This document shows positions 1-24,000 of a DNA stretch of 32,000 nucleotides, piece by piece (positions within the stretch are counted from its first letter, which is position 1; each line of letters starts with the position of its first letter). The DNA is from Candidatus Omnitrophota bacterium (lineage in GTDB: Bacteria > Omnitrophota > Gorgyraeia > Zapsychrales > JANLHA01). Made by a program: the position numbers and the translations under genes. Location: contig OY759724.1 of assembly GCA_963662715.1 (NCBI GenBank), positions 1,200,001 through 1,232,000 on the forward strand. Reading direction: 5' to 3'. The notes beneath the pieces were generated by a model, which worked only from the letters and a program-made list of their open reading frames with translations, was not told where the DNA came from and did not search any database.

Positions 1-3000
1 TCATATCTTCAAAGTTTTCTGTATATGGACCGACAATGACAGGTTTGGCAAAATTGGCAGGTTCCAGAGGATTGTGTCCGCCTAACGTATACCAGAAACT
101 TCCGGCAACAACGACGACACTGGCAATGGAATAGAGGGATTTTAATTCACCATACGTATCCAGCATAATCACCTGAGGAGGTCCGCGAGGATCTATGGAA
201 CTCAAAGCAGATTTGCGTATCGCCGGAATACCCTGCAACTCCAAATACCGCATAAATCCGTCAACATCAGCAAGATTGCGCGGAGCAAATATCAGTTTCA
301 CATTTTCCAATCCCGGACGGATAATCAATTCTTTATAGGCCTTGACCAATTCAACTTCTTCACGTTCATGAACACTTCCGTAAACAAGAATCTTATCTGT
401 TCGGTTTAATCCCAAATGTTTTAATAACTCTGTTCTTTCATCTTCCGATAAAGTAATCAGGGATGTGTCATATTTAATATTTCCAATAATGGAAATCCTG
501 TCGTCTCCGACCCCTCTCTGCTGCAGGAATTCTCTTGCAAGTTCAGAAACGGCACCGAAATGATCCGTCAATTCCACGAGTTTACGGCCGTAGAACCGAT
601 ATTTTACCCGAAGGACTTCACCAAGAGACTGGTCGTCCGACAAGAAAGAGTTGATCACGACCGTAGCCGCCCCATATTTTTCTTTGGCAATTCTAACGAA
701 TTTAGGCCCTAACCCTATAAACGATTCCTGGACGACGACATGAACCGGCCTGATAACTCTGAACAGCCGATTAACAGCGGACTTCATATCAAAGACATAC
801 GGAAGAACAACGATATCCTTATCAGCTAAACTCGCCATGTCTTTGACATTTTGGGTGCTGTTTGTCAGCAGGACAATACGATAATCCGGATAAGTCTGCT
901 GCAGAGCTTCTATCAGGGATATGGAATTAATAACTTCCCCGACACCGCAGGCGGAGACCACGATGGATTTCCTGTCGTCTTTGAATGTGGCCTTAATGTC
1001 TCGCGGGATATACCCAAAGCCTGCCGGAATATCGCTCCAGTGACGATGCTGCTTGATAAGATGTCGCACAAAATTCATGCTGTACAACGGGGCAAAAAGC
1101 AGGTCTTTAACGAAGAAGGTCAGCCTTGAGTCTCTTTCAAGCCATTTGGAACCCGTAACCGATACAATAACAGCCGCACATGCACTTCTGCCGGATTTCT
1201 TAATCATCTTGTAGGAATGATACATTCCCAAACGCAGGAGGGCATAGAAAGATTTTCTTTCTTGTCCGTTATCCTTCCCCTGCTTGACCGGGCTGGAAAC
1301 CTTGTTTTCCGGAGACTTAACGCGATAGTTGTACATTTCCGGAACATCATCCTGATCAATCCTTTCAAAAGAGTATCCTTCAGCCAGCATGGAGCCCAAC
1401 AAGACACCTTGTTCACCCCGGTCTTCCAGTAATTCGTTTTCAACGTAAAAGGTCACCTCTCCGTCTATGGAGAAATTGAGATAGATATTACCGAACGCTC
1501 TGTTAACATTGCCGTACGCATCCCACATCGGCAATGTCTCGATATCAAATTTCCGGCGAATAGTGTCCGCCTGCCCTTTGGTCCACTCGACAGCCCATTC
1601 CCAGACATTCTCATCCGGGATGCCGGTCTCTTCCTGGACAGCCTTCCAAATCCTGGACTGCAAGTCGTTAATAAGCGTGACGGTCTCCATTCCGTCATAA
1701 ACGTAGCGGATCACCAGATCTTTGTTCTGTAAGGTCCGGATGACATTGACGAACTCTTCCTGATACTTGGCCGTGACACGGGCTATCCTTTGCCGGCCGG
1801 CTTCTCTGTCAATATCCGCTTCGGACGAATACACCGCTTTGAAGGCATCATGATGCCAAACATGGAAACTCAGGTTGACCTGCAAATCAAACGGCAGGGT
1901 CGCCAGCCGTTCGGCCGCCTGCTGGGCCCGGCGGTCGTTCACCCTCCAGCCGTGTGTCACCAGCCAGACATCAAAGCCCCGTTTATGAATGGCATCCACG
2001 ACATCGGCGATATCCTTGCCCGAAGCCTCATCATAATAGTTCATCGGTTCAAGGTCCTGGCACACGGAAACACCTCGGACCAGACTGGCTCTCACCCAGT
2101 TCAGGAATTCCTCTTGCTGAGGCCCGGACAGAAGATCTTGCATCGCCTCTCTGATCACCGAATGCATGGCGATGTATGGATTCTGGTCACTTAATAAACG
2201 CGTCTGCCGGTATGTGCTGGCCTGTTCGATAAAGTCGGCAAACAGCTGCTGATAACGCTCATCAGTCTCCTCTAATAAGTAATCTATAAGCCATTCCTGG
2301 GTTTCCTGAGTCCAGCGGGCTTTCCTGAATTCCGCAATAAATTCTTCCCGGACATTGACAATAGAATCCAACACTTTTTCGATCTGTTCAAACGGCATCA
2401 CCCGTCCGTTCTTGGAGCTGCCGAAGAGACAGATCAGACAGCCGCGGTTACATCCCGACATAATCTGAATGACCGGAATACGCTTGCGGTAGAAACGGTC
2501 CAGGCGCCCGCCGAACATGATGTAGCCCTGCGGCGGCGTAAAGTAAACCTGGCGGATGGTCCTCTCCCAGACGTCTCCATTAACCGGGCTGGAGGACATG
2601 TTTTCGTTCTCTGACTGTTTCAAAGACAGCAGGACAAATATGCCGTCATCCGATAAATAGAAATCACTGTTGTCCGCTTCTTGCGTCTTCAGAGATTCTA
2701 TTAATTCCCACACGGCAATATGAATAAGATAGAAGTGATCCATGGAGATATCTGCCGGGAACATAACTTTTGAGGTTTCTGCCCAATATCGCTCATAGAC
2801 TTCTGGGAAGCGTTCCTTCAAATGACCCCTTGTGGCAAAGACCGGAACAAGGCCTTCAACGCCAATTTGATCGGCTGTATAATCAAGAATCATTTCTTCG
2901 GTATCCCCATTCTCCTGGACAACCAGCATGGATAAATAATAATGTCCGGCCCTGCGGCTGAAAAGCACCCGGGCATCGATACCGTCTTCTGCCAGGGATT

Positions 3001-6000
3001 CTCCCGCCAAGATGGACATGCTTTCACATCCTTTAGGATATACCGGGAAGTCCTCATGATAATAAGCGCGTTTGAAGTAAGCATGGCGCTGGATAAAATC
3101 TTGCATGCTTTCAATAGACACCGGTTGAATGGTTGCGGGCAGGACTCTCCCGCTGCTGACCGGGGAACTTGCGGCCGCAGAAAGCATAAATGCCTCTACG
3201 GTCTCTTGAAGGACGGTCTTGCTGTAGAAAGCCGTCAGGCTAAGACGGACCGTATTGCCTTCACGGATAAACAGTTTTTCAGGATCTTCGGCAAAATGAA
3301 CGATTCTTATCTGCAGGTCACCGAGGCTCAATCCCTTTCTCTCGACAACATTGCTGACAAAACCGGTCAGCAGCTTAAGTTCTTCCTGCGACACATAAGG
3401 TTTCCGGCTGGCAAGTTTATACGGATATTGACGTGACGGATTATAATCAACGACATGATGCGTAAACCCGGCTTTGTCCCGGATATGAGCCAGCAGGGCA
3501 TAAGCGCTGTCGTCCTGAGCCAACATGCGGATTCCTTTCCGGTCAATAACAGTTCTTAAAACGGCTTCCGTATCGTCATTTTCAATATCTGAAACGATAA
3601 TGGTGTTGACCGGCAAGTCCATCATATCCAAGAGCACGCTGTAAATACCCCGCCCGGCAACGTCGTTCAAATAAACCCAGGCATACAAAGCATTCATGCC
3701 GTTTTCGGAATAAATGCTGAATCTTGCCTCACCCGGGGCAACGCCGTAAACGCCTTCTCCGACATAAACCCTTAATTCATAATTATCCGATTCGGCGCGC
3801 ACCGGATAATCAAAATCATCTTTTCCGACGACATATTCTTCTTCGTTCAGGACATCGGCCATTTCATCAATGTCAATAACCCTCGGCTTACCCCGGACCT
3901 GATACTGTGTTGTCCACGCGCTGTTTTCAAGGCTTAAGACCGCAATATCCCTGTCTTTCCGCTCTGCCGGCATATTGTTTTTCCGGATGACCGGGCTGGA
4001 AGAGCCGGAAGACTCTCTTAAAATCTGTTCGGATAACATAACAGCCGGAGCTTCGACGCGGATAATCAGAGACTCGATTTCCTGTGCGGCGACCAATCCC
4101 TCCTTACTGCGCTGCTTGACGGAGAAGACCTCGTATTCTGTCACGGCCGGCAAGACCGTCTGACGTTCTTCCATGACTTTTCTTACAATATTGGCTGCTG
4201 TCGTAACGTTCTTAACGGCCAGGTAAGCCGTATCCCTTATTGATGCCTCCTCATGAATATAATCCTGAACCGTCTGAATATATCTTAAAGCGCCTTTGGC
4301 GGCTGTCGTCTGCCGGTGAACTGTATCCAGGAGGCTCCTGTGATAAGCCGTTGTGCCGGGCTGAATATTGAGCAGGTTCCAGGCCCGGGCAAGCGTCCCT
4401 TCCGATGTGTTATAAATCTCTGTGCCCTCGGCAAAAATCGTAGAGAGCGCCAGCATAATGCCGCCTTTATCTTCGACAGAGACGTCCCTGCCCCCGACAT
4501 TAATAACCTGGTACTGAATACGGCCTATGCGGGTTTCCATAGAACCCGTCATCAGGGCCGGATCCAGGGAGGAGGCATCGGCCACGATCACCACATCAAT
4601 ATCGTTCGGCTCTGTTGACCAGAGGCTGCTGCCAAAAGCATAGACCAGACGGATATAAGGAACCGCGGCCGCAAACGTTTCATGGACCATAATCTCTGCT
4701 GCTAACCAGGCCGAATCAATCGTCGCTCCGGCAGGAGTATGGATCATCACTTCGGTATTCACAACCGGGCTGCTGGCGGGTTCTCCACCCTCTTCCTGGC
4801 TGAGCAGAGCTTTTCTTTTTTCCGCTTCTTCAAGAATATTTTCCAGCAACTCGTGCAGACGACCGTATCCGAAATTGCGGGACGCCATATGATAGGCGGT
4901 CTTAACCATCGGCAGGGCTCTAACACGTCTGATCCGCTCCTCCTGGCTTTCCGCGTCTATGGCATTAACCAGCTGGATGACTTTCTGAACCGTCTGCCGG
5001 AACGCTAAATAATATTCCAGAGAATACTTCACATACTGCTCTATTTTTTCTTGAGACACTCCGTTAAATGACTGAAGGAAAAGCTTCTGCTTTTCAATCT
5101 CCTTCTCCGGGAAAAGAGGAAGTTCAAGGAAATGCTGCAAATCGACGGCTTTAACCTGATTAGGATTAATATTATATTCCATAAGAAATTCATCACTGAG
5201 CTGAGGATACTCAATAGCCTGGCCTTTCATCTGTTTCTTGATAAACACAGTATAAATTTGATACGGATACACGATAACCGGACGCTGGGCCGCAATTCCT
5301 TCGATCAGACCATTTCCAAAAGCTTCAAAGGTGGATGAATAACTGACAAAATCCAAATTGGCATAAACGTCTTCCAGAGAATAGACCTTATTGCCTTTTT
5401 TATCTTCTTTACGGCCGGCGTTAACCTGGACTCCCCTGCCTTCCAGCCAGGTCACGACCGCGACATCCTCCCCACCCCCATGACGCAACTCTAATCTGTC
5501 AATAAACCTCGCAAGTTTATCCTCATACGCATAATCCTTGCCGTTGAGTTGTCCTGTGATCAAAAGCTTGTAGCGGGCTGCCCGCGCCGGATCCATTTCC
5601 TTGATAAGCTTAAGAAGAAGAACCGGCAGTTCGAGGCTCTTCCTTTCAATAATTCTGATAACCGCTCCGATCACAATGTCATTCTCTTTCAATCCTAACC
5701 GGGCACGGAAATCACTATTAAAACTGTCTAATTCCGGAATGCCGGAGGCGAAGTTCCAGACATTCGGAACAATATGGTTTTGCTGCACAACGCGTTCAAC
5801 GTGTTTGATCAGTTGTTCCGACAATTGGTCCTTCCTGGCAGTCTTGTAAATCTTGGCCATGTTTGTCCAGCGGTCGATCAGCATCTTTCGGGCAATCGGA
5901 TTGATAAAGACCTGAATCACATTATCACCGTAAAGCGGGAAGGCCGTGTCCAGATAATCGCCAATAACGTCATTCAAACGGTTTTCCGGCTGATATCTCC

Positions 6001-9000
6001 GGCGTTCAAACCAGAAATCATGATTATGGTTAACAAAAAGGATGTCTTTTCTCTTGGCCGCAAGCTTGGCTGTTGCCACGCCTAACGGGATCTGCATCGG
6101 GATCGTATTGGCATTTTCAATCACCACCATGGATAATTGGTTGCGGTCAATCCATTTCTCCATGGCTGCCGCGATACGGTCGGAATAAGCTTCCACCAGT
6201 TCGGCCACAACCAGGTTGATCTTCTGGCGGATCAGGCGGAGGACTTTCTTGTTCTGAACAGTTTGTGTGTTTGCCTTAAGGTCACCCTGCTTCTCTATAA
6301 CATCAATGGCCTGCAGGATATCTTCTTTTTCACCCGACGCGAACAGATATTTCTCATTTTCAAGCACGTATTCAAGATCCGCTTTAACCTCGTCCATTGT
6401 TCCGAAATTGGCAAAGCTCAATCTTGTAATAATTAAATTAATCTTATTTTCATAAATGATATCCGGGTTAACGGAATAGTCGATATCCTTAATCCAGGAA
6501 TCCCCTCCGCCTATATAGGCATAAACACTCTTATGCATTTCCAGAAGAACATCGATCCACTTCTTGGTCTCTAAGGACACCCCGTCAAGGTTCCCCATGC
6601 GGTGTAACACAAAACCGACGCGGTCATGGGAGGCTGGACCAGCTGACTGTGTCACCGGACTTGAGCCAGAACCTTCTTTATCAGAAGAGACCCTATAAGC
6701 TCTCCATTCATGCCGCTTCAGGTTCCGCCAGGCATTGGTTGGTTCTATTCCTTCAGCGGAAACGGATAAAGCATAACCCTGTTGCTCAAGATGCTGTAAC
6801 TGGGTTAAGGTTCTTTCCTGCTCAACGCGTCTCTTGGCTTCATCAAAGGCGAACCAGCCGACCAGGAGCGTCGCTCCCTCGCGCAGCATGTCACCGGCCT
6901 TCCGGACCATCTGTTTCTTAACAGCGTCAGACAACCCGGGATAAGACAGCACTGACATCATGATCACCACATCGATCGAATCCCGTTCGATCTGCGCGTG
7001 TTCAAATAACGCACGGTCAATGGTCGGAACTTCAATACGGTATCCCTTTGCAAGGCTCTGTTGTGAAGCGAACGTCCTCCAGGTCTTGTTGACTTTTTTG
7101 TCCGGTTCATAAATAACAAGCTGTGCACCGGCAGACAGGAACATATGCTCCCACGGAACCCAGAATGTCTCGACATGATGCGCTCCCTTCAAGCTGATCG
7201 CATAATCACCCGGCCCCACAGAAACAACCCGGCTTTCCGGACCGATATTCAACTCTGTCACCAGTCTTCTCGCCTGCTCGATATGAATCAAGCGGCTGTC
7301 ATCTTCTTCCTCGTTCTTTACCGGAGAAGAGGTAACCAGCACTCCCGGCACAACCAGCGCAGCAACACCTGTCGCTTTGCCGTGCCCGGCCGGGAGCAAA
7401 ACGGATAGAATCACACGTCCAGACACACCCCTGAGTGATACACTTCGATCCTTCTCAAAGATGTTCCTTAAGACACTCTCTTCACTGTAAGCGATACGGC
7501 TTGTATTCCTGTCCGCTGTCATGCGGAAGACTTGCGCAACAACCTCTGTTAAGACGGCATACCATAACGGCTGCGGAGGACTTAAGCCGGTATGCATATA
7601 GTTCTTCCCGGAAGCCTTTACGGCTTCGAACATGTCCTTAAAGCGTCCCGCCAACATGCCGTAATCCAGGCTCGGAACGGCTGAGAGGAGCCCTGTCAGC
7701 AGGCGGCTGTAATCTATGAAAGCCAGTCCTTTGGGCAGGATATCGGTTGATGTTGTCACCGGAACAAACGGCTGGCCTTGCGGTGTTGAGCGGGCGGTCC
7801 GTTTCTGATTGATCGGTTGAACCGGAGCCTGCATCAGCTGCGGCCAAACAGCCGGAGATATCCAGGTCGGGACCAGAGGCATGATATCTTCTAACGGGAT
7901 TTCGATAACCGTCGGCAAGGCCGGCTGGTTATGGAGTTCTAAAATCGGCGAGGAAGCCGCGCCATCATCGGCTTTCTTTTCTGCCCCTTCAGTTGATCTT
8001 TTCGCTTCGGTCTCTTCATACAACCTGCGGGCTTCCTCACTGATTGTCACTTTATCCTGTATAGGCTCTATCTTCCGGCTCTTCTTGTCTTTTCGCTGCT
8101 GATCCTCTCGCTGTTTACGGTCTTTGTCCGTTCTGACGGTCTTATGCACCGGCTCGACTTTACGCTCAACCTTTTCAACCGGGCTGCTGGAATCTGCTTT
8201 ATTTTCGCTGTCCAGATCAGCTTCCCGTAATTCATAAAAGGTGTCAGGATTGATGCCCCAGTTGTTCAGGTAGCGCAACACACGCTGCCGCGGGGCATGC
8301 GTCCGGACCTGCAGGAGGTCTATCACTTCTTCATACAGTTTCACTTCTCCGCCCTTCACCGCCTCTACCACCAAGTCCCGGTTCTCTTCAAATATCTTCC
8401 GCTCCTGCTCATTCACGATAACGCTGTCCCTCACCGGCATCAGTTCTTCCGTCGGCTTCAGATGCCGTTCCACAGCGTTGATCACAGGCTTAAGCTCCCC
8501 TTCCGACACCTCGCTCACTTCCGCCACCGTCAGGGCTGACAGCTGCGCCAATCGCGGAACCGTCACGTTAATCCCTTCCTTCTTCAGCCGGATATACGCC
8601 GCTATGATACTCTGGGCTTTCGCCGACAATCCTATCGCGTCCCCGTAATACGCCAGGTCCTTCGCCGTCCTGATCGCGTTCTCTTCCACCAGCTCCTGCA
8701 GCACGTCCGCCTTCCTGATCCTTCTTTCCACCGGGCTCGAGCTCAGGTCCATCCGGGAAACCGGAAGTTCTTCACTCGAGAGTTCGACCATCAGGTCCCA
8801 GAAGTCCGGCATGATCCCTTCATAATCCGGATGGTCTGTCTGCAGCGTCTCATACGCCTCTTCCCCGATCTCCCGGAAATCCTTCATATCCTCCGCATCC
8901 AAACGGTTCACGTCAAACCATCTCTGACCTATGTACCCCCGGCTCTTCACGTCATAGCCCAGGATCCCCGCCAAGGTGATCTTCGCCTCTCGCGCCTTCT

Positions 9001-12000
9001 TCTCCCCGCGCGGATCCGCGTTCCACATCCGGCTCAATAACTCTCCGCTCTCCAGCACGCTCTTCGCGTCCTTCGGCGTCAGCAATGTCAGATACAGCCC
9101 TTCATTCCCTTCAAAATATTCATGCAGTTTCCTCGCATACTCCCCTTCCTTCGTCTGCGCCTTCCGCTCTGCTTTCGTGTACGAATAGTGCAGGTGCACA
9201 TACCCCAGCTCCTGATTCGCCTGCTGGTTCGCAAACATCTGGTTCGCCACATACAGCGGCGACGGATACGCATGCCGCGGCGTCCCAAACAGCTCAATAT
9301 TGATCGGCGCCCGCAGATACTTCACATCCGCCAGCTTCGGCTCCGGCTTGTAATACACGCTTCGTCTGAACATCGTCTCGATCGGCGTTGTCCGCACCTT
9401 ATCCCACAGCTCCTCATCCGTGATCCCGCCCTCCGGTACATTCAACGCCTTGCGCCAGTACAACGCATTTGTTGGCTCATCATACAGGTAATCCACAACA
9501 CTCCGACCTTCCGGCAGCACCAGCTGATGCGTCGGAATCCAGATATACCGGCTCGCACTGCTCCGCTCATCAAACGTGAACCGCACCGATGACTGCAGCT
9601 GCAGCCCCAGCTCTTCCCTGCGCTCTTCTCCGAAACCTCTTTCTTTCAACCCGGCATCCGTATAGGTCTTCAGGCCCGGGAACGCGAACGTCCAGCCCTT
9701 GTACCACCAATCCAGCGGCTTGACATCCATCCCCAGGATATGCGGCATGATAAAATGCGTGAACTGGTCACCCTTCTTTTTGGCGATGATATACGCCCCG
9801 AACTGGATCGGTTTGGCAAATCCTTTCACCTTGCGGCTGAACACTTCTTCGATCTCATTGAGCCGGTGCGGCCCGTTCCACGGCCGCGGACTAGTCTCCC
9901 TCTCTTCGATCGGCGAAGAAGTATGATTGTTCATCAAACTCTCTTGGAAGATCGGATTGATCCTCATCAGTTCTGCCCTAACCGCTTGATGCTTCATCTT
10001 AAACGGTATCTGCAGTAAGATATCAATAAAATCAGGTCTCAGAAAATATTGCCAAACGGCCGAATGATACTTCCCGGGGCTTTCATGAATTTGCAGGATA
10101 AAATCCCTCCAAGGAACAAATTGCATGCCGTTGACTTCTGCCGTTTCCACCCCTCTATTCAGCAGGGCTTCCTCTTCTTCAGTGATAATGTAAGAATATA
10201 AGAATGAGGTTTCTCTATTCATTCCTTTTGCCGATTCATAATAGAAAACATCTCCTTCATATTTCTGCGTCTGTTCGTATTGACGGCTTCCGATCTTATA
10301 GAACAGCTTATAAATCCTGTATAGCCGCAGGAAATCCAACGGCATAACGCCAAGTTCTTCCTGGAATTCACGCTGAATCGCCTTGATTCCAGCTTCCCCT
10401 ATCCGGGGATGTCCTGTGACAAACAAGCCTAAACGTCCCTGATAATCCTTTTCTTTGCGCTCCTGCAGGGCCAGGCGCTGTCCGTCTTCTGTAATGCCGA
10501 GGATGTGATCCGTTCGATGATGTGTGCCGTCTTGGTGCATAGACCTTAATGTCTTTGCGACGCCCGTGGTTTTCAACCCTGTCGGTTCAAGGACATCAGA
10601 AACTTCACCGATAACAGGGCGGAGGGCCAGGATCAGCTTCGTTAAACTGGATGTCCTGATTCCCAGCTTCCTCGCCAAATGACGCAAAACAACAGCATCC
10701 TGTTGACCAAATGCCTGAATAATTTGTCTCTTTAACTCAGCATCCGCCTTGACAGGACTTGAAATAGACTCTCTATTCAGGGCCAGAGCATCCCGTTTAT
10801 TATCCGTCATAGCGCTGCTTACGGCTTCTCTTCGATATCCGATATACGCTGCCGGTTCGCCGTCCACGTTAGACATCTTCAGGGCTTTTCTTAATATCCG
10901 GTCCATCTGAGTGGCGGATGTCACCCCGACCTCCCTGATAACCTGAGGTGTTACGCGGACAACTCGCCCTCTTTCTCCCTGCGTTTCTCTTTCAACCCAT
11001 TTCAAGACCTCACGTTCCCGGGCACCCAAAACCTGACCTTCCGGCTTCTTGGCTATCAGCTTTAACGCGTTCAGTTCAACGCCGTTGGTCACATCTTCCA
11101 CCAATAAAGCGCCTTCTTCCGGCAGGAGATACAGGACGGTGTTTTGATCCAGCTGCGCTAAGGCCTCTTCCTTCGTTAAGAGACGGGCATCAGTGTTCCG
11201 GTAAATGTTGCCCTTTAATCCGGCTAAAATCACCCGCGCTTCATAATGGCGCAAACCTTCTTCCGGCTCAATGCCGCGGGCCCATAAGATTTCATTCAAT
11301 GTCTGCCCTTTCTTCAAGGCATGAATCAGCTCCCGGTGAACAATCCCCTCTGTTCCTTCCCCAATCACCGAAGCGTCCTTGCGCATGCCAATGTCAGAAA
11401 GAGCATTTTCCGGATCATAATTATCACCGAGCACCAGGACCTCCTCAGGCCGGATATCAGAGAACCGGCGGTCGACATAATCCCATACCCGGGCTTTCGA
11501 GAGATGTTGCGCCACCACCCGTAAACGGTATGTGCCGTTGGTCACAACCTCGACAGGCAGGTCAGCCTCGGCAAAAGCCGTTCTCAGGACGTCGATAGCC
11601 ATGTCTCTTTGAAGTTCGCTGTCGTAATAAAGGGTGAAAATGCCGTCTTCTCTGTTTCCGATATGGCTCGGCCTTATCGTATCTAATTCCCAAATGATTT
11701 CCTGAACAACCTCGGCCTGTTCTTCCGTCAGAAGAGGTTCATAATCCGTCAATGGTTCCGTGCGGATTCCCCGGGCATCCGCCACGAGGCGGTAAGCCGT
11801 GTGCCCGGAAGCGGCGAAGAAGTAAATATTGTTTAATACAGATGTATCGATATCCTCAGCCGTTAAGTACTGGCGGATAGGCTCTAAGAAAAAGTATTCA
11901 ATTTCTTCAATGTTCTGCTGGGTCACCAGGCCGAAAATCACGCCGTTTAATAACTGCTCGACAACGGCCCGGATGACCTTGAAGCGAAGCGGCGTTAAGG

Positions 12001-15000: not shown

Positions 15001-18000
15001 TGACGCGAGATGCGTTCTGTTTCCATTGACCGGCTTTCCGGACGAAAGACTGCTCTAACTCGGTATATTCTCCGAAGAAGGCCTTAACCATCGCGACAAA
15101 TTGATTCCAAAGCCTTAACAAGGATTCGAGGAACGAGCCCTCCCGCATGATATCAGCGATAGAAATAACAACGGTTTCTTTTGTCTCCTCCTCATCTTCC
15201 ACCGGGACAAATCTCAAAGCCACTTCCGCTTTACCTGTTATGTAAGCTTTTGCCAACGGAACTTCTGTGATCGATGAAAGGGACAGTCCCCGTTCAGGGA
15301 CAGGCCTTGTTAATTCTGTTGTATTCTTTTCCAGCGGGCTGGAAGAATCGTTTCTTTGATTCCGCTCAATAGAGATAGGATCGTCAAGGCCAAATCTATT
15401 GAGCATTTGGGATGCCATACGATCACGATATATAGAATTCTTCTGGGCTCTTCGATGCAATTTAAATAACAGGATAAATGTACCCAATAATGCTAATATG
15501 CCTGGGATCTCAAACATCAACCTTGTATACTGTCCAGAAAAATCAATCTGCTTCAAATCTATATCGTATTCTCGAGCAACTTGCTGTGCTGATTCTTCAA
15601 CCGTCTTCCCTTCAAAGATATTTCTTATAAATTTCCACCCACTCCCTTCCTCCAACTGCTCAAACTGAATGGCAATCACGGCCCTTTGATAGCCAGTTTC
15701 TCTCGGGGTTCCTTGTAAATCTTCTGAAATAATTCGTAGTAATTGATTATAAATTGACTCGTCAATACCCAATTCAAAATGCCGCAAATAATCTATAGCA
15801 TAAACAATTTTGTGTTCCACAAATCCGAGACCTCTTGACAGAGGATACAGATTGTGTGCTGTCTCATGGGCAACCAAAGCCCTGAAAGCTTGCTCCGAAG
15901 GAAGATCTTTCTGTCTTAAGAAACCGATGTGATTGTCATTACCATGCCCGTGCGTCACAAAATTCTTTGCTATAGGAGATGTTATCTCATGAACCCTATC
16001 CCTTTGCTCTTCAGATAAGTATGGAGCGACCTTGGATATTAACGATCTCTGTTCTTCAACGACTATGGCAGCTTCCTCTCTATCAAAACCTCTGGACACG
16101 AGTCCTTCCACAGAAGATGATGTGTCATTGGCAAAGGTTCGGGAGAATCCGAACAACACCATGACAAACGTTGATATCATCAACAGCGTCTTCAAAACCT
16201 TCTTAATACCAGAAGAAGACAGTTCCCGTTCAGGGACAGGCCTTGTTAATTCCTTTAAGGAACTGCCGGTGGTAACCGCATCCCCTGTCTCACCCTTTAA
16301 CGCAGTTACCACCGCATATGTTCCTTGTCCCTTCACCCTTTCGTTGTTTGTTGATGAAAGGGACAGTCCCTGTTCGGGGACAGTCCCTGTTAATTCTGTT
16401 AATTCCTGATTCTCTATCGGACTGGAAGACGCGTCTCCAATGATTTTTCCGAGTAATTTTCTTGCATACGCAATTGCCTCGTCCTGGTCAATAAATTCAG
16501 GGCTGGTCGCAATCGTAATAATGGAAGCTCTTCTAGCGAGCTGAGCAAAATAATCCACCGCCACATCTTTTTTCTGAGCACTTAATCCTCTTAAGACATC
16601 AAGATCGACATCCAGCACGTTAAAGTCAAGTTCAGCCGCGTCAATATTTGCCCCTTCTTTGATCTTATATCTTAGTTCGTCACGGACCATCAAATGGGCT
16701 TTACGGTTTTCTGCGTTGTACATAAAATGCCATTCCGTGAAGAAGCCATTTTCCATAAGCGGAGCGATAAAGCCCTCGATTCCCATGACATCCTGTGAGT
16801 GTCGGTCAATTGTCGCTAAATCTAAATCGGTCTTATAGAACAAATCTTCCTGAGACTCGCGGTACCGCCGGGTCATCTCGGCATCGGCGTGAGCGTCGAT
16901 GTGCAGAATTTTGTTGGCCTTTGCCTTGATACGTCCTTCCTGAAGCATGAGCCACCAGAAGGAATAAGCATAATTATGATAATCCATCACCATCACAACA
17001 CGGTTATCCGGCAGGGTCATAACCACCTTATTTTTCATGCCAATCGTTTCGATGTGTTTGGCCGGCAAGTTCGGATCTTTCGGACTGCGGTAAATATCCG
17101 GCTGAACATCATCGAGGGTGCCGTTAAAGACCCATCCTTCCGCCTGCCATTTCTGGTCCACCGGGCTGGAAGATGCTTCCGGTGCTGCCGGCTTCAGGCT
17201 TCCTTCAGGTGTGAAGCTGAATTCTGCCGGAATGAAATCAATATCCTTACGGTTCAGATCGACCCGGGAAGCATACCGGGCAGCAAAAGACTCCTGCGTC
17301 AGGCTCCACAATTCAACCAGTTCCGGATTCGTCCGGAAGAACTCCGGACCGTTAAAGATCACTTCTCCCCGGTTGTTATAAAGAATGGCTTTTTCCAGCT
17401 TGGAGCGGGATATCGATATCTGTCCTTTGTACATCCTGACGATCTCCGGCTTATCAAAATACACATGGTAGAATTCTTTTCTGATATACTCTTCAATCGT
17501 GTTTCTGCCGCCCCGGATGACTTTGGCCGGGATCTTGTTATATTCATCCGTAAAGACAACATACTTGGTGTTTTCCTGGCCGTCGGCAAGGTTAATAATG
17601 ACGTCCTTGGCAAAGAGGAACCCGAATCTGTCCTGTGATGACAATTGTTTGAGCCCTCTCAGCGCAAGCCCTTCCGGCATGCCTTTCGTCTGCACCAGGA
17701 CTTTAAATCCGAGGTTCGTTGCAATATCATGCTCGGCCCAGTCGGAAAGATGGACCAGATCTTCATCGAGATTCCACAGCCAGTCTCGCTGATACGTGAA
17801 GCCTAAGGAATCCAGGCCATGCTGTTCTCCGTGCCGGGCCACATCATAGAAGTTCACCATGGCGGTTATATTAACCTGGCCTGCCTGCGCATAAATATCC
17901 TCTATCGGCAGATGCTCCTCTTTTCCGCTCCAAACTGAATATTCCCGGCCTTCGATATTTTCTTCAACTTTCCCGCCGTAATCGATAGTGACCACAAACC

Positions 18001-21000
18001 CTCTCTTCAATGACCTTGATATGATCTGCTGCCATGCCTCAATAGCCGGCTGGACAAAAACTTCGGTTCCTTCCGGCAGAGTAACGCCCAAACGGTCCAC
18101 GTAATCTTCGAGTTGTCTGCTGGACAGTTCGCCGATTTCATCCCGATAAGTGCCGTCCTGCTCAACCGTGTAGATTTCTTTAAATTCTCCCTCAACGGCT
18201 TTCAGCCGATGACCCGGCAGGTCATCGATCAACTCGTTGGACAGGAACACGCCTTCGATATCGTGAAGATCTTCTTCGGTGACATCAAGCACGGACTTCT
18301 CAATCCAGCGGACTTTACCGGCGAATTCGGCTAATTTTTCTCGCTGATTTGTCCTTAAGTTAGAACTGAATTCCACAATGACATATTCCAGAGCCTGGAA
18401 TAACTGCGGCTGATATTCCTTGAGATAGCTCATGATATTCAAGGCATATGTTCCGTTCCCGGCACCCATCTCCACAACGCTGAACTTGGCCGGCCGGCCC
18501 ATCTTGTTCCACATTTCGCTAAGCTGATACCCTGTAGAATATCCGAAATATTTCGCTGTTTTGCGGTCTTCAACATAGGTGTCAAAATCTTTTCCGCGTC
18601 CGATCTGCGCGATCCGGCCGTAATATTCTGTCTGGGCCTGCGACATAAACTCGGCAAATGTTTTTCTGTTCTCAATCGGTGAAGAAGATTTCTTGCCGGA
18701 ACCTCGATTGCCTTTTAATGTCTTGACCGCGACCATGGATCCGGGGATCCTTTTTTCCAGAGCGTCGACAATCGTCTGATTCTGGCCTACCGGGGTGAGC
18801 ACCTTAATCTTCCACTCCGTAAAGCCGTCTTCGATCTCCCGGCTCTCGATCTCTTTGATGGACATATTCATCTCGGCGATCCGCTCAGAAACGAGACTTT
18901 CCATGCCCGGCCACGGCTCGGTCACAATCGTAATCAGGCGCGGGATCGTCGGCATAGCCTTAGCGCCCTTAACCTTGAGGATGGCCTGCACATCGTCCTT
19001 CATTCCGTTAATCTCTTCAGCCGGGATATCCATATCGATCACCAGGTTATCCCCTTCCACTTTCTGTTCATGAACGTTGCCGAGATGCTGCGTGATGACC
19101 GCCACGATATCTTTAAGCAGACCGATACGGTCATACGGCAGATGCAGGGTCATCTTGCCATAGGTCTCTTTTGCCTTGCCTTTTTCGTAATACACGTCAA
19201 CGACATCAAATTTGACATGTCCTTCTTTAAAGTCCAATTTGGCCAATTTAACATTATCATTACCGACAAGCTGGAAGAACTCATCCTGTTCTTCCAGGAG
19301 GCCCCAGCGGAGGTACAGGCTGCGCACAAGACCAGCGTTCTGCAAACCTAAGCCTAAGGCCGACAGGGAATCCCGTCCTTTTTGCGCGGCATTGAAATCA
19401 AATTTCTCCAGCAGAAGCACTGTTCTTAGATTCATAGCGTTACGCAGGATAAAGCGGCGGTTTCTCTCCAGATAACTTCTGCTGTCTCCCGGTTTACCCG
19501 GACGGACCGGAGTCAGCGGATTAATGCCAACAATATCCCCGTTCTGCAGCTCATACTTCTCGCTTCTTATTTGACGGCCCCTGATTTCATAGGCGTCAAA
19601 ATCATTGCGGATTCTTAAAGTTTCAACCCCTAAATATTCGTCATCCAGTTTATGAATATCTTTTCTGGCAGCGATGTCCGCCGGGATACTGCCTTTCTTG
19701 AGTCTCAAAGTCTTGAAAGAATATTCGTGTCTGCCTTTACGGGTCGGCGGTTCATGGACCTGGACATAAACCCAGTCGCGAATGGATTCCAGCAAGCGTT
19801 CAAAATCAGCATCAAAGTCACCGGCGATATCAACCTGGCGGAAATTAAATTCCTGGTTAGGATACATTTCAACCATCTTGTAGAACCAGTGGGCCGCTTT
19901 GTTCCCGAAGCGCATAAGATTCAGGTTCGTCTCGTTCATAATCTTAATCTCAAGCGGCACGCCCTTGACCTTTGTCCATGATTTTGCCGGCAGCATAAGG
20001 CCCATATGCAGACTGTCATAACGGTCGAATTTCGCAATCATGCGGTGCTTGGTCCGTTTAGGAATGATGCTTCCGATGTCGACAAAAATTTCATCGCTAT
20101 ATTCATCAATAAGCGTCAAGGCCTCCCAATAATCCTGGATCTCCCCTTTCACGACCACATGCAAACCTAACAGGTCATAGAGAGGATCATCCTTGGCCTT
20201 CCTCTCCTGCCGTTCGAATTTCTCCGCGATAGAGTAAACGCTCTTGACGCGGGAGCTCATCGAGAACTTCACTCCGCTTTCTCCAAAAATCTCTTTCAGC
20301 CGTTGCTGGAGCTTTCTCTTAACCTCCAGCAACGTCCCCCTGGCTTCTTCATACGTCATGCCGAGCAGTTCCTCTTCGATCTTCCGCTTCATCTGAACAT
20401 ATTCCTGAGGATGGGCGACCATATAAATTTCATTACGCAGCATGGAGGAGAGATCATCCCGGCCGAGACGTTCGGCTAACGGTGCGAAAACGTCTTCAAC
20501 GACCTCTTCAAAATATTTCAATTGTTCCTGCGCCGCCTTATCAATTTTCCTGCCCCGGAACTTCTGAATGGTGCTGTAAACTTCCTTGAAGATCTGCGAC
20601 ATGCCCTTAGCGGAACCGGCCAACTGGACGATCATCTCCATATAATTCTGAATGGAGTCGCCGCGCTGATACACAGGGATGTCGGTAATGCTCGGGACCC
20701 GCGCTAAGCCCTTCTTCACCGCCTTCTTCTTGATCGGCGAAGAGGAATGTTGCTCTCCATAGAATTCATCCAAAGTTATCATCCTGTCTGTCGGAACCTG
20801 TGCCGGCCGCCAGGCCACAATGACAGGAGTCATGATCCCCGGAGTCGTCGGCAGGTAGCCCCGCAATTCTTCAAAGACGCGTATTTCGGTCAAGCCTATA
20901 CTGCGCAGATAATCTTTGTAGCGCTGATAACTGGAGACCGCCATGTCATCGTGTTGGATGCGGACAAAAACCATGGCCGGGCCTTTGACCGGAAGCAGTT

Positions 21001-24000
21001 CGGGCAACGACCTCTTGATCTCATCAAACACACCTTCGGCAAAGAACGGCTCATTCAAAGTGATGACGTTGAATTGATGCCGCAATTCTTTCTCAAAACC
21101 GGCCTCTTGAGCTGACAGGCCATAAAATTCCGCCTCTCCCTCGTCCGGACTGGTCAACGGGTCAATGCCGGTCACTCTCTTCAACAGCTCCATAGCTTTG
21201 CTGCTGGCGGCTATGGTATTGGCAAACGCATTATCACCCGCTCCGATATCAAGGAGGGCGGCATCTTTTCCAACATATTGTTCGATCAACCTTAAGAACG
21301 TTGTGTCTCCTTGGGTCCACTCTTCGCCGCTTAACCGGGCCTCAGCAAGAACCCCTTGCATCCTCTGATCAAAACTTGCGTTCCCTGAGGAGCGGTTGAG
21401 CATCGGAGAACTGACAGCGCCCGTTTGAGTTTCACTAGAAGCAATAGAATCGTCTCCTGAAGCAATTTTTGCTTCAATTGTCCGGGTCATCGTTTCAACA
21501 AAATATTCATTCATATCCAACGGAGTTGAGCTCATCAACGTGGAAGCGCCGACGCTGCTCTTGACAACTGACTTGATACTGCTGCTGACGGTATCGGCTT
21601 CTTTGCTTGCCAGGTAAGCCGCATATTCTTCGGCGCTTAACGGCGCAGAGCTCATTAACGTGGAAGCGCCGACGGTACTCTTCGCTGCTTCCTTGATACT
21701 GCTGCTGACGGTATCGGCTTCTTTGCTCGCCAGGTAAGCCGCATATTCTTCGGCGCTTAATGGCGAAGAGCTCATTAACGTGGAAGCGCCAACCGATGTT
21801 TTTCTCTCAACCGGCTGAACCTGGACTTCATCAATCAATCGTAAGCTGCTTCCCTGGGCCACCCGGGCAGCCGGGGTAACAACCTTGGTGTAGACATGGC
21901 TCAGAGCCCCGAACGCTCTCATAAGGAACCTCACCAGGAAGTCCAACAAGAACCTCAACAGCATGGCCATTCTCTTCATCAGGGATGCCATGGTGATATA
22001 AATCACTTCCTTTTGCTCAACTGTTTCATCGACAGCCGGGAAGACCAGGCTTATCTCGGCATTATCCCGAACCGCGTCTTTTCTGCCCGGGACAATGATC
22101 AGGGCTTTCTGCCAGGCAGCAAGGCCTTCATAGGCACGGCGGCCGGCTGAGAGAAGACCGGTTTCCACCACGTGGCTCTGATGAGAAGAAACCGGCGAAG
22201 AAACTTCTTCCAGGACCGGGGAAGAAGAAGCCTTAGGAGCAACCTTGTAAGGTGTGAGCGTCCAGATAACAGCATTAATTCTTTCCTCATTACCATAAAC
22301 TAATTTCAGCAATTCTTTTTCTTCATCCGTGAAGCTGATCTTTCCGGCTAATTCTTTGATTAGAGCATCCCTTTTCTTTGCGCTGGTTTCGGCGGCCGTC
22401 GCAATAATTTCCTCTAAATCCTGGGCCAAGGCAGCTGAATTCTCTTTGATCTTCTTCTCAATCAAGGCAAGCGCCTCTTCCTTCTTGGCTGCCAGGAAGG
22501 CTTCTGTCAGAGCCTTCTCCAACATCTTTTTGGCCTCCTCTTCATCATTACCGTTTAGATCCTCTAAGGCAGTTCTCAATTCTGCGCTTAAGCGGTTCTG
22601 CCAGATATCGTCCTTCTTTTCCGCGATATCTGATTGATTCTCAATCTTCGCTTTTCTCAACAATTCATCCGCATCCAATAATTTCTCTACGGCTTTCTCC
22701 TGCTCATCTTTATTCTGCTTCTCCATTTCCCCGTACAATGCTTGTCTGGCCTTAGCTCTGTCATTATCGCGGGTATCTTCCAAAGCTGCCCGGAAGGTCT
22801 TCGGAGATTTATACCAGACATCCTCTGTGACTACGTCCGTGACACCGCCCTTGGCTTTCCGGACTCCACGGAATTTATCCAAAAGACGCTTTAATAATTT
22901 CTCCGCCATCTTTTTCAACCCTGTTTTCTTGTTGTCCAGAACTGTTTTCTGTTGATCCTTTTGGGCTTTATCAATGTCAGCAAACAGCTTTTCTTTGAAT
23001 TTATCCACATTGTTTTCACTCACATCCAGCAGGGCCTGTCTCAGTTCACGATCCAAATCAAAGACTTCCAACACTGTCCTGCTGACAAATTCTTTCTTAA
23101 GCTGGGAAATTTTGTCTCCTTTTTCCGTCTTTGCTATTCTTGCCCGGGTTTCGCGCAGAGCTTCAACAACCTCCGGATTTCGGCTGATGGCTTTGATATA
23201 TCCGTCATAGTTCTTATCTTCTATGACCTTTTGAGCAGCCTCTTCGGCTTTCTTCTTAATCTGCCCGAAGAGTTTTTCTGCGGCCTTCTGGTGAGTTACG
23301 TTGCTCAACTCTCTACGAACCTGGGATAACAGTATCTCCGAAATGCTCTCGACATATGAATCCGAACTGACAAACAGTCTGTCAACGCTTTTCAGTAATG
23401 CATCTTCCATGCAACCGTCCTTGGCCTTTTCAAAAATCCCTTCTATTTCTGCCAACAATTTATATTCTTCAGAATCTCTGTCAACGGAATCAAAGGCCTT
23501 TCGGATAACAGCAATAAATTCATCCGCTGTCGTTCTGGCTTCCATGTATTCGAGTAGTATCGTAATATTACTGAATAACTGTTCTTTAACCGTGCCGGCA
23601 TAAATCGGCCCAAATTTAATTCTAATCTGCCTTAACCATTCTTCTCTCTTATTGGTTTCTAAGACTTCTTTATATTTGCTTACTAAGGCTTCTTGGGAAG
23701 CGTCCGGGCCTAAAGCTCTTAATGCGTTCTTCACCCTCTGGAACAAGACATCATGTGATTTCAGCTCCAGTCCGGTTAAAGACATATACAACTGAACTAA
23801 CTTTCTGAAGTCTACGCTTGATTCCGAACTCATCAGCATATTGATAAATCTTCTCTGTTCCGTCCCGTCTTTTTTCAATTCAATCTGCCTGAAGGCGTTT
23901 ACAGCGGCCGGGTTCTTCAAAACCTGACCGGCCACATATCCGGTGTCGCTGGCCTGGGCAAACATCATTTCGAACAGGAACTCCTGGGCTCTTTCTGCAT

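Follow-up and report, generated by a model that had tools for sequence, protein, structure and literature searches.

Can one bacterial gene hold some twenty enzymes that usually stand alone, and what separates each of them from the next? The question is raised by a stretch of 32,000 nucleotides (the window) from a Candidatus Omnitrophota bacterium (assembly GCA_963662715.1, contig OY759724.1, positions 1,200,001 to 1,232,000). An earlier note on this DNA had described about 22 normally separate modules, fused into one polypeptide between positions 1 and 22230, downstream of a membrane glucan synthase. We find one giant open reading frame (ORF) on the minus strand. Its enzyme modules are bordered by a recurrent short peptide, SSP[V/I/L/M], here called the junction peptide.

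The six-frame translation shows a single stop-free frame at window 2..31999 of the minus strand (frame 1 of the reverse complement). It has 0 stops in 10,666 codons, whereas the remaining five frames carry 258-682 stops each. The frame is open at both window ends, and the protein has at least 10,666 amino acids (aa). The ORF tool listed nothing there because the frame exceeds the window at both ends. Residues i..j correspond to window positions (32000-3j)..(32002-3i). The fusion of usually stand-alone families in one frame is thus borne out. The limits given for it were too narrow, since 22230 (about aa 3257) is the place of the first junction peptide and not a gene start. The glucan synthase and the module string share the frame with no stop between them. 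The synthase is therefore part of the same polypeptide, not the separate upstream gene that had been supposed. No Rfam families or tRNA genes were found inside the frame in the whole window.

An artefact or a decayed gene would be another way to obtain such a frame: a chimeric assembly, stops lost to sequencing error, or a non-functional remnant. The string of the distant relative L003 is broken by one in-frame stop and one frame change, and noisy assemblies split such genes (L004). We nevertheless hold this reading to be extremely improbable, and it is effectively refuted already. The contrast in stop counts speaks against it. The catalytic motifs are kept, including three of only nine cysteines, and both the fusions and the junction peptides are conserved across independent assemblies. 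One of these, L001, is stop-free across all 12,661 nt and runs off its contig end. Likewise, P0124 (3,388 aa) crosses 12 junction motifs without a stop and P0120 (1,641 aa) crosses 7. The earlier note had named stops lost to assembly error among the findings that would undo its claim; independent assemblies keep the fusion. The gene fusion is genuine; the window covers an inner part of a giant Omnitrophota gene.

We also considered recent internal duplication as the source of the string and rejected it. Self-BLAST gave no internal repeats at E<1e-4 in the frame, and the lone DNA tandem repeat is a 120-nt unit in module A, the first module of the string.

The junction peptide was observed 25 times in the 10,666-aa frame, where 0.36 copies are expected; the maximum in 300 residue shuffles was 3. 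The frame has no SSP tripeptide besides these 25, and the residue that comes next is V in 15, I in 5, L in 4 and M in 1. The peptide is absent from aa 1-3258, and its first copy stands at aa 3259 (window 22225). Twenty copies lie between modules. The other five fall in a repeat of about 40 aa, in or beside the paralogous modules A and B. The flanks are scarcely conserved except for S/A at -1 and E/K at +4. The serines are encoded by a mixture of TCN and AGY codons. The proline is CCG in 23 of the 25 copies, against 74% overall, a marginal rise (p=0.03). Because the codons vary, the conservation is at the protein level and not that of a DNA recombination site. A DNA-level recombination site was rejected on the same ground, the switching of serine codons between TCN and AGY.

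The peptide is also kept outside the window. The S-S-S-P-I columns are invariant in a three-sequence alignment (A1), and L001 and P0001 carry the motif at the same junctions. The Nudix homologues P0002, P0003, P0006, P0007, P0009 and P0015 are bracketed by it at the predicted residues. It also brackets three modules of unassigned family: U1 in P0004, P0008 and P0063, U2 in P0016, and U3 in P0014. Taken together, these Nudix, U1, U2 and U3 homologues come from 11 relatives. Relatives that are 30-60% identical retain it at shared module edges. Close relatives have 1.6-4.6 copies per 1000 aa and the L003 ORFs 2.3; most of the distant long matches have 0, and P0005 is a relative without the motif. 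The four residues, under selection at the protein level and shared by diverged relatives, mark the module borders and the cassette seams.

Word-indexed protein searches returned one match each or none: P0001 is 59% and P0002 42% identical to the window protein. The exhaustive HMMER search, with aa 7080-8224 as the query against 1.84 billion representatives, gave 114 matches. The best of these are proteins of 1,000-3,600 aa on short contigs, named 'partial [Candidatus Omnitrophota bacterium]'. Nearly all named close matches bear this label; P0005 (unclassified 'bacterium') and a weak match labelled Zixibacteria do not. A scan of the genome collection found L001 as the sole relative. It is 70% identical on the MidA module, lies at a contig end and is labelled 'uncultured Planctomycetales'.

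Comparison with these relatives shows how the string changes. The window and L001 share 59-61% identity across aa 3253-3511 and 3750-5215, and they are essentially unalignable upstream of the first junction. L001 lacks the TM-HExxH module (361 aa), and the gap runs exactly from SSSPIE to SSSPLE. In L001 and P0001 an unrelated 340-aa module takes the place of the first methyltransferase-like module (223 aa). Among fragments from the nearest assembled genomes, P0004 and P0120 have the order U1, U3, MTb (the second methyltransferase-like module), MNT (a nucleotidyltransferase) and U4. In both of them U2 with the basic linker, and the GT4 glycosyltransferase, are absent. The order in P0124 is MTb, MNT, U4, U5, X, radical SAM, four other modules, B and the basic linker. 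Here GT4 is absent between MTb and MNT, and module X, of 429 aa, is extra. Every whole-module insertion, deletion, replacement or reordering seen among the relatives has its edges on the junction peptide. The check proposed for related contigs, whether modules vary as cassettes, gives a positive answer in L001, P0001, P0004, P0120 and P0124.

The distant relative L003 (JGI Ga0496409_0000112) shows a different kind of change. Its in-frame stop at 3990-3992 lies three codons before a junction ('SSLN*LASSPIGR') and gives ORFs of 1,329 and 3,661 aa. One frame change occurs at about 14940-14978, and the called genes encode 1,317, 3,595 and 7,387 aa. A real split, readthrough or a sequencing error may each underlie this. 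The stop beside the junction suggests that junctions are also sites where strings can split into separate genes.

Composition agrees with a mosaic origin of the modules. The GC content at third codon positions (GC3) ranges from 0.40, in the TM-HExxH module that L001 lacks, to 0.73 in U1; U2 has 0.71. The modules are heterogeneous in GC3 (chi2=153, df 19, p=5e-23). Of the circularly shifted segmentations, 99.5% account for less of the GC3 variance than the real one does. A test for local GC3 steps at the junctions was not significant.

Cysteine is nearly absent: 9 of 10,666 residues (0.08%), at aa 1123, 2863, 9658, 9850, 9854, 9857, 9980, 10274 and 10351. Three of the nine form the CxxxCxxC of the radical SAM module. 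The L001 protein (L001p, 4,220 aa), P0001, P0004 and P0016 have no cysteine, while the distant relatives L003, P0005 and P0015 have 1-1.7%. With about 1% in the distant relatives, the depletion is lineage-specific, and only catalytically required cysteines are tolerated.

To which kind of protein does the string belong? Omnitrophota are tiny bacteria. Most of their classes have members with giant ORFs (Seymour et al. 2023). The 'Archaeovorin' type consistently holds glycosyltransferases (GT), methyltransferases, S-adenosylmethionine (SAM) enzymes and NUDIX hydrolases, and its type sequence, from Velamenicoccus archaeovorus LiM, is 39,678 aa long (West-Roberts et al. 2023, bioRxiv 10.1101/2023.11.21.568195). 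A later catalogue describes a 'multi-enzyme metabolic cluster' class of up to 147,155 aa. It classifies 46% of long proteins as transmembrane-only ('TM-only'), read as membrane-anchored with cytoplasmic domains, and finds 80% of such long proteins to be singletons at 30% identity (Nielsen & Lui 2026, bioRxiv 10.64898/2026.06.07.730766). The functions of these proteins are called unresolved in all three works. The claim that no protein with this combination has been described does not hold for the kind, since Omnitrophota giant proteins with GT, methyltransferase, NUDIX, radical SAM and HAD domains have been described. The window protein belongs to this known kind, the Archaeovorin or multi-enzyme class, and its sequence itself is new.

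The membership rests on several shared features. The nearest relatives are proteins of 'Candidatus Omnitrophota/Omnitrophica bacterium'. At least 10,666 aa satisfies the catalogue's limit of at least 10,000 aa; the 'giant' of West-Roberts et al. (more than 30,000 aa) is beyond the reach of a 32-kb window. Many enzyme families are present (GT, methyltransferase, NUDIX, radical SAM, HAD), none of them dominating, together with multiple transmembrane helices. As in Archaeovorin, the Omnitrophota origin is given by homology, the ORF is single and very long, and membrane helices are many. The same mix of families is found, with domains highly divergent from their stand-alone relatives and with large unannotated stretches. 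The window differs in being a fragment, in which the N-terminal peptidases, SecA_DEAD, HEAT, TPR and glycoside hydrolases of Archaeovorin are not seen. In particular, no SecA_DEAD, N-terminal C39/S8 peptidase, HEAT/TPR repeats or type II secretion-like genes lie inside the window, the gene ends and neighbours being outside it. Conversely, the text of the Archaeovorin paper does not name GT48, RelA/SpoT, MidA, UPF0489, phosphoribosyltransferase (PRTase) or WaaA modules, and it describes neither a junction peptide nor cassette exchange.

The likeness to the 'multi-enzyme metabolic cluster' is also close. Distinct Pfam families tile the chain and none is dominant, with methyltransferase, HAD, GT1, radical SAM and NUDIX among them. 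Membrane helices occur without a visible signal peptide, the bulk appears cytoplasmic, and the sequence is unique in a conserved architecture. Membership is judged here on a fragment, and the catalogue covers Pfam co-occurrence and topology, not linkers, motifs, cleavage or cysteine. The two preprints (West-Roberts et al. 2023; Nielsen & Lui 2026) make no mention of a linker, motif, junction, cleavage site or cysteine content. A full-text literature search for SSSPV/SSSPI gave nothing relevant, although an earlier description cannot be fully excluded. To judge from the available literature, three features are undescribed: the junction peptide together with the cassette seams, the depletion of cysteine, and a GT48 domain in a bacterium.

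Topology was read from hydropathy only, with about 17-19 hydrophobic helices in the frame. Lysines and arginines (K/R) were counted around the helices at aa 832, 1185, 5268 and 5494. Of the K/R near the helix at aa 832-850, 3 precede and 7 follow it, and the outer flanks of the TM-HExxH hairpin (aa 5268-5286, 5494-5512) are basic. The positive-inside rule then suggests that aa 1-825 and the HExxH loop are outside, and that the regions before and after the hairpin are cytoplasmic. The string would be cytoplasmic because of this K/R distribution and because of the needs of its enzymes (ATP/GTP, SAM, phosphoribosyl pyrophosphate, nucleotide sugars, CMP-Kdo, Fe-S cluster). These cofactor needs are those of the family biochemistry. 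The predicted topology agrees with the 'TM-only, cytoplasmic-domain' class of the catalogue.

We give somewhat better than even chances to the following explanation. The window holds an internal piece of a giant Omnitrophota multi-enzyme ('Archaeovorin'-like) gene, whose product would be a membrane-tethered, mostly cytoplasmic string with junction-bordered cassettes. From N to C, the chain runs from an acidic region through a membrane helix and a GT48-type synthase with two helix bundles to a probably helical spacer of about 700 aa and about 20 autonomous modules. Each module carries SSP[V/I/L/M] at its N-terminal border, and the string would have been assembled in evolution from interchangeable cassettes. 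Only the TM-HExxH hairpin loop and the first 825 aa would lie outside the cytoplasm. The enzymes would mostly act on nucleotides, SAM or sugars, beside a synthase that exports a polysaccharide. The whole might thus be a membrane-tethered factory for envelope, glycan and nucleotide metabolism, made from one message. A conserved tetrapeptide exceeds the needs of a flexible linker. Our best guess is that the junction peptide is recognised by a trans-acting factor.

Several points weigh against this explanation. Profile searches identified no protease in the window able to cut the junction. The predicted topology puts the HExxH loop on the wrong membrane side for that task, and the idea of a JAB-type protease in U1 has no profile support. 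Some catalytic motifs are degraded: 'DLLGLH' and 'EIKIMN' in the RelA-like module, the missing DxD of the CCA-like part, and Q for E in U1. The block at aa 5797-7079 comprises three domains with no internal junction peptide. A near-absence of cysteine is commoner in exported proteins than in cytoplasmic enzymes. The helix number of the second bundle is uncertain, so that the side of the string is not established. Finally, most domains of such giant proteins were predicted to be extracellular (West-Roberts et al. 2023).

What does the junction peptide do? A site for a processing protease is a possible answer that we place appreciably below even; the ORF would then be a polyprotein, and its modules would be freed or nicked in the course of a very long translation. 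In viral and other polyproteins, one long ORF likewise encodes many unrelated enzymes, with a short conserved peptide at nearly every junction. The window shows such a peptide at its inter-module junctions, and this regularity makes the processed polyprotein a legitimate hypothesis. The difference is that the window has yielded no protease, and cleavage here is hypothetical. In its fullest form, SSP[V/I/L/M] would be a processing signal, and some 20 or more junctions of the chain would be cut, during or after translation, to give single enzymes. The same junctions would serve as the seams of cassette exchange. This form is rather unlikely. If true, it would be an expression strategy that replaces the operon, without precedent in cellular organisms at such a scale.

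Conversely, the chain might remain an unprocessed mega-enzyme or scaffold. The motif would then be a structural linker (Ser as helix N-cap, Pro at N1, often Glu/Asp at N3) that insulates modules during co-translational folding. Fusing the modules would keep them together at the membrane synthase and in fixed stoichiometry. E or D stands at +4 in 8 of the 20 junctions, which fits an S-P-x-E capping box, and the profile searches showed no protease. In published work, each giant protein counts as one membrane-anchored polypeptide (West-Roberts et al. 2023; Seymour et al. 2023; Nielsen & Lui 2026), and peptides were detected all along the V. archaeovorus protein. However, ordinary multidomain proteins do not hold one tetrapeptide at nearly all junctions over 30-60% divergence. 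Capping alone does not explain the two serines before the cap, nor the strict V/I/L/M after Pro. We judge the unprocessed chain as a whole to be conceivable but on the unlikely side, and the same tentative standing applies to the peptide as a helix start or folding insulator. A modification or a binding (docking) site is a still more doubtful role.

The window gives a concrete handle on whether giant Omnitrophota proteins act as single or cut chains, on the membrane side of their enzymes and on the evolution of their genes. Whether the chain is cut can be tested directly in existing proteomes, through non-tryptic peptide ends at the motif. The motif is also a simple way to segment unannotated stretches into units for structure prediction.

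The modular effector polyproteins of the MARTX type had been offered as the closest analogy. MARTX toxins and the window protein are alike in that a very long polypeptide strings together unrelated enzymatic modules, with unstructured junctions between them. The analogy fails on the parts that define MARTX toxins: no cysteine protease, RTX/glycine-rich repeat or autoprocessing domain was detected in the window. The window differs in lacking RTX/glycine-rich repeat blocks and the inositol-phosphate-activated cysteine protease domain, in having a multi-pass membrane synthase upstream, and in that its modules are of largely biosynthetic families. Membership was rejected, as neither Peptidase_C80 nor another protease family (E<=0.01-1) nor RTX/glycine-rich repeats were found in the window; the true termini lie outside it.

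A MARTX-like arsenal would be exported by a predator or epibiont and act in or on its prey, with the junctions cut after delivery. The nucleotide pools of the prey would be the target of the RelA/SpoT-like, Nudix, PRTase, nucleotidyltransferase and radical SAM modules. Some observations are in line with this. Omnitrophota are regarded as predators or parasites, with a giant protein that is upregulated on attachment (West-Roberts et al. 2023; Seymour et al. 2023). The PRTase module is nearer to the toxin PRTases PsyrT/ShosT than to metabolic ones, and a U2 homologue lies among TIR, SIR2 and NACHT genes. The near-zero cysteine is shared with many proteins that are exported unfolded; but this depletion is lineage-specific, and the L003 relatives have about 1% Cys. 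Neither MARTX repeats nor a cysteine protease domain nor a type I secretion signal is visible, the C-terminus being outside the window. The string comes after a multi-pass synthase, the residues flanking the hairpin fit a cytoplasmic location by the positive-inside rule, and WaaA, GT4 and MidA resemble biosynthetic enzymes instead of toxins. The delivered arsenal suggested in the earlier note appears to fit poorly with the basic-residue distribution and the cofactor needs, which both point to the producer's cytoplasm. We consider it improbable.

Polymorphic toxins offer another comparison. They have demarcation motifs, VENN in CdiA and PxxxxDPxGL in Rhs, and the Rhs motif is also a self-cleavage site. 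In these systems a single motif stands between the constant body and one variable tip, in DNA that supports recombination. The likeness is a short conserved peptide at the joining point of interchangeable cassettes. The difference is that the window motif recurs about 20 times, that its codons are not conserved, and that the cassettes are enzymes and not toxin tips.

The synthase at the head of the chain resembles FKS1/callose synthase (GT48). Pfam Glucan_synthase (PF02364) scores 212 bits against a cut-off of 37.2 and is covered at model positions ~3-509 of 819. The PDB structures of FKS1/GSC2 (7xe4) match at E=1.5e-32. The module starts with about 6 helices, followed by the catalytic domain (aa ~1420-2160) and about 8-10 helices; hydropathy places the two helix bundles at aa 1148-1420 and 2160-2545. 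The catalytic-region match and the flanking bundles point to a GT48-type identity, a family that makes beta-1,3-glucan from UDP-glucose. The likeness to the known synthases thus lies in the catalytic core by sequence and in the two bundles, and the difference is that this domain is bacterial and embedded in a giant protein. GT48 is regarded as an essentially eukaryotic family. It is not named in the two preprints on Omnitrophota giant proteins (West-Roberts et al. 2023; Nielsen & Lui 2026). L001 has a membrane module at the equivalent position, with marginal similarity (22% identity over the GT48 core, E=0.02). The region between the synthase and the first junction is probably helical and acts as a spacer. 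Together with the near-zero cysteine, this bacterial GT48-type synthase provides leads on localisation and on the polymer built.

The table lists the features of the frame. Pfam was run on overlapping 1000-aa pieces and then on each module, and PDB sequence searches were added. Eight of the domain calls made from the sequence proved firm, reaching the curated Pfam cut-off: Glucan_synthase, RelA_SpoT, Methyltransf_28/MidA, UPF0489, Pribosyltran, NUDIX, Glycos_transf_1 and Glycos_transf_N/WaaA. Six stand as borderline in score, with their signatures intact: Radical_SAM, ACT_4, HAD, the Pol-beta/MNT nucleotidyltransferase and the two methyltransferase-like modules. The calls of a 'CCA/PAP-like' enzyme and of a TGS domain found no profile support. 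About 10 modules (A, B, U1-U5, aa 1-825, aa 856-1147 and aa 2545-3258) have no usable Pfam/NCBIfam match. Catalytic signatures are kept in the Nudix box, CxxxCxxC, DxDGT, GxGxG and EX7E.

Table. Features of the giant minus-strand frame, in order from the N-terminal side
Feature	Residues (aa)	Window position	Strand	Evidence or remarks
Acidic soluble region	1-825	29525..31999	-	net charge -57; internal ~55-aa repeat; no family match
Single membrane helix	832-850	29450..29506	-	hydropathy 1.99; followed by RKKGLKKDKK
GT48 (FKS1/callose-synthase-like) membrane glucan synthase	1148-2545	24365..28558	-	Pfam, PDB, hydropathy
K/E-rich region	2545-3258	22226..24367	-	no family match; GC3 0.49, lowest of the N-terminal part
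Junction peptide, 25 copies (first S)	3259, 3267, 3411, 3530, 3753, 4439, 4944, 5192, 5553, 5699, 5725, 5736, 5797, 7080, 7361, 7754, 7938, 8016, 8224, 8446, 9076, 9334, 9611, 9803, 10235	1286..22225	-	
Module A	3259-3529	21413..22225	-	amphipathic hydrophobic helix and three copies of a ~40-aa repeat 'VGASTLMSSSPLSAEEYAAYLA'
First methyltransferase-like module	3530-3752	20744..21412	-	Methyltransf_23 at 13.4 bits only
RelA/SpoT synthetase-type module with ACT-like C-terminal part	3753-4438	18686..20743	-	Pfam, PDB
MidA/NDUFAF7-type SAM methyltransferase	4439-4943	17171..18685	-	Methyltransf_28 174.5 bits; PDB 4f3n/1zkd/5ztz
UPF0489 module	4944-5191	16427..17170	-	PF12640 at 38.3 bits
TM-HExxH module	5192-5552	15344..16426	-	helices 5268-5286 and 5494-5512 around a loop with a single HETAH; motif only
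Module B	5553-5796	14612..15343	-	paralogue of module A, same repeat peptide
Three-domain block	5797-7079	10763..14611	-	N-terminal part without profile match; PRTase aa ~6408-6507; HAD (DYDGT aa 6659)
Nudix module	7080-7360	9920..10762	-	NUDIX 40.7 bits; perfect Nudix box at aa 7196; junction peptide on both sides in homologues from 9 Omnitrophota fragments
U1, U2, basic linker, U3	7361-7753, 7754-7937, 7938-8015, 8016-8223	7331..9919	-	no Pfam/NCBIfam match
Second methyltransferase-like module (MTb)	8224-8445	6665..7330	-	Methyltransf_12 at 17.3 bits
GT4-type glycosyltransferase	8446-9075	4775..6664	-	Glycos_transf_1 28.8 bits; EX7E in sequence
MNT/Pol-beta-type nucleotidyltransferase, U4, U5	9076-9333, 9334-9610, 9611-9802	2594..4774	-	Polbeta 14.6 bits and GS..DID (nucleotidyltransferase)
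Radical SAM module	9803-10234	1298..2593	-	28.8 bits against cut-off 29.5; CNRGCLIC at aa 9850
WaaA/GT30 Kdo-transferase-like module	10235-10666	2..1297	-	Glycos_transf_N 68.7 bits; PDB 2xci E=1e-12

The RelA/SpoT-type module scores 41 bits for RelA_SpoT and matches PDB structures of Rel/RelA at E=2.5e-7; ACT_4 reaches 26.4 bits against a cut-off of 27. It does not have the HD+synthetase+TGS+ACT architecture of long RelA/SpoT homologues. Only about 55 aa precede the synthetase, so an HD hydrolase domain is absent, and no TGS was found in the module by Pfam at E<=1. The synthetase motifs are altered to 'DLLGLH' for DxxGxR and 'EIKIMN' for EVQIRT, and AAHWFYK is retained. With these replacements the module may have a changed specificity or be inactive.

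Modules A and B each carry three copies of 'VGASTLMSSSPL(S/T)AEEYAAY' after an amphipathic hydrophobic helix. The copies lie at aa 3403-3500 (window 21528-21790) and aa 5690-5770 (window 14700-14930) of the minus strand. The repeat of module A is encoded by the 120-nt DNA tandem repeat, with 91% matches, at 21528-21790. Module A is conserved in L001 and P0001, and the repeat peptide in L001, P0001, P0105 and P0124. The TM-HExxH module between A and B has only a faint DUF4157/eCIS_core match (E=0.15), and its fold is without profile support. A second short repeat, 'TELTRPVPERGLSLSS', flanks this module (aa 5212, 5250, 5560).

In the three-domain block, the 'CCA/PAP-like' part has a GWMVRDLLRG-type stretch, no DxD and no profile match. 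The single-sequence AlphaFold2 model of aa 5797-6340 has low confidence (pLDDT 37.9). The PRTase scores 29.5-30.1 bits for Pribosyltran and the HAD 16.8 bits, with DYDGT intact. At window 12203-12982 of the minus strand (aa ~6375-6507), the PADLOC models PsyrT and ShosT match the PRTase at 5.4e-14 and 4.8e-6, against 5.5e-7 for Pfam Pribosyltran. This comparison suggests a ComF/defence-type PRTase instead of a metabolic one.

Toward the C-terminal side, the radical SAM module is 57-73% identical to P0124, P0125 and P0126. The WaaA/GT30 module is cut by the window end, and its 2xci match reaches the last window residue. U5 has a faint NCBIfam match to D-Ala-D-Ser ligase (ATP-grasp-like; 18.6 bits, E=8e-4), and NCBIfam otherwise gave nothing for the modules without Pfam match.

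Homologues of U1-U3 are almost confined to Omnitrophota fragments. The U1 family (window 8741-9919) has an invariant HxH...(S/T)PxD and an upstream PI(E/Q)FG (PIEFGxYL), in which the window copy has Q for the E of its relatives. As a JAB/JAMM protein, U1 has no Pfam match in any of six homologues and no PDB profile match, and its AlphaFold2 model from a 6-sequence alignment is of low confidence (pLDDT 38.8). A JAB/JAMM metalloprotease is thus a lead, not a claim. A stand-alone homologue of U2, P0013, has 198 aa and is 41% identical (L005 10001-10597, Logan SRR24270839_37196). Its neighbours are TIR/Macro, NACHT-TPR and SIR2 genes, in what looks like a defence island. The U1/U2 region also shows a strong excursion of both GC-skew and AT-skew (window 8001-10000).

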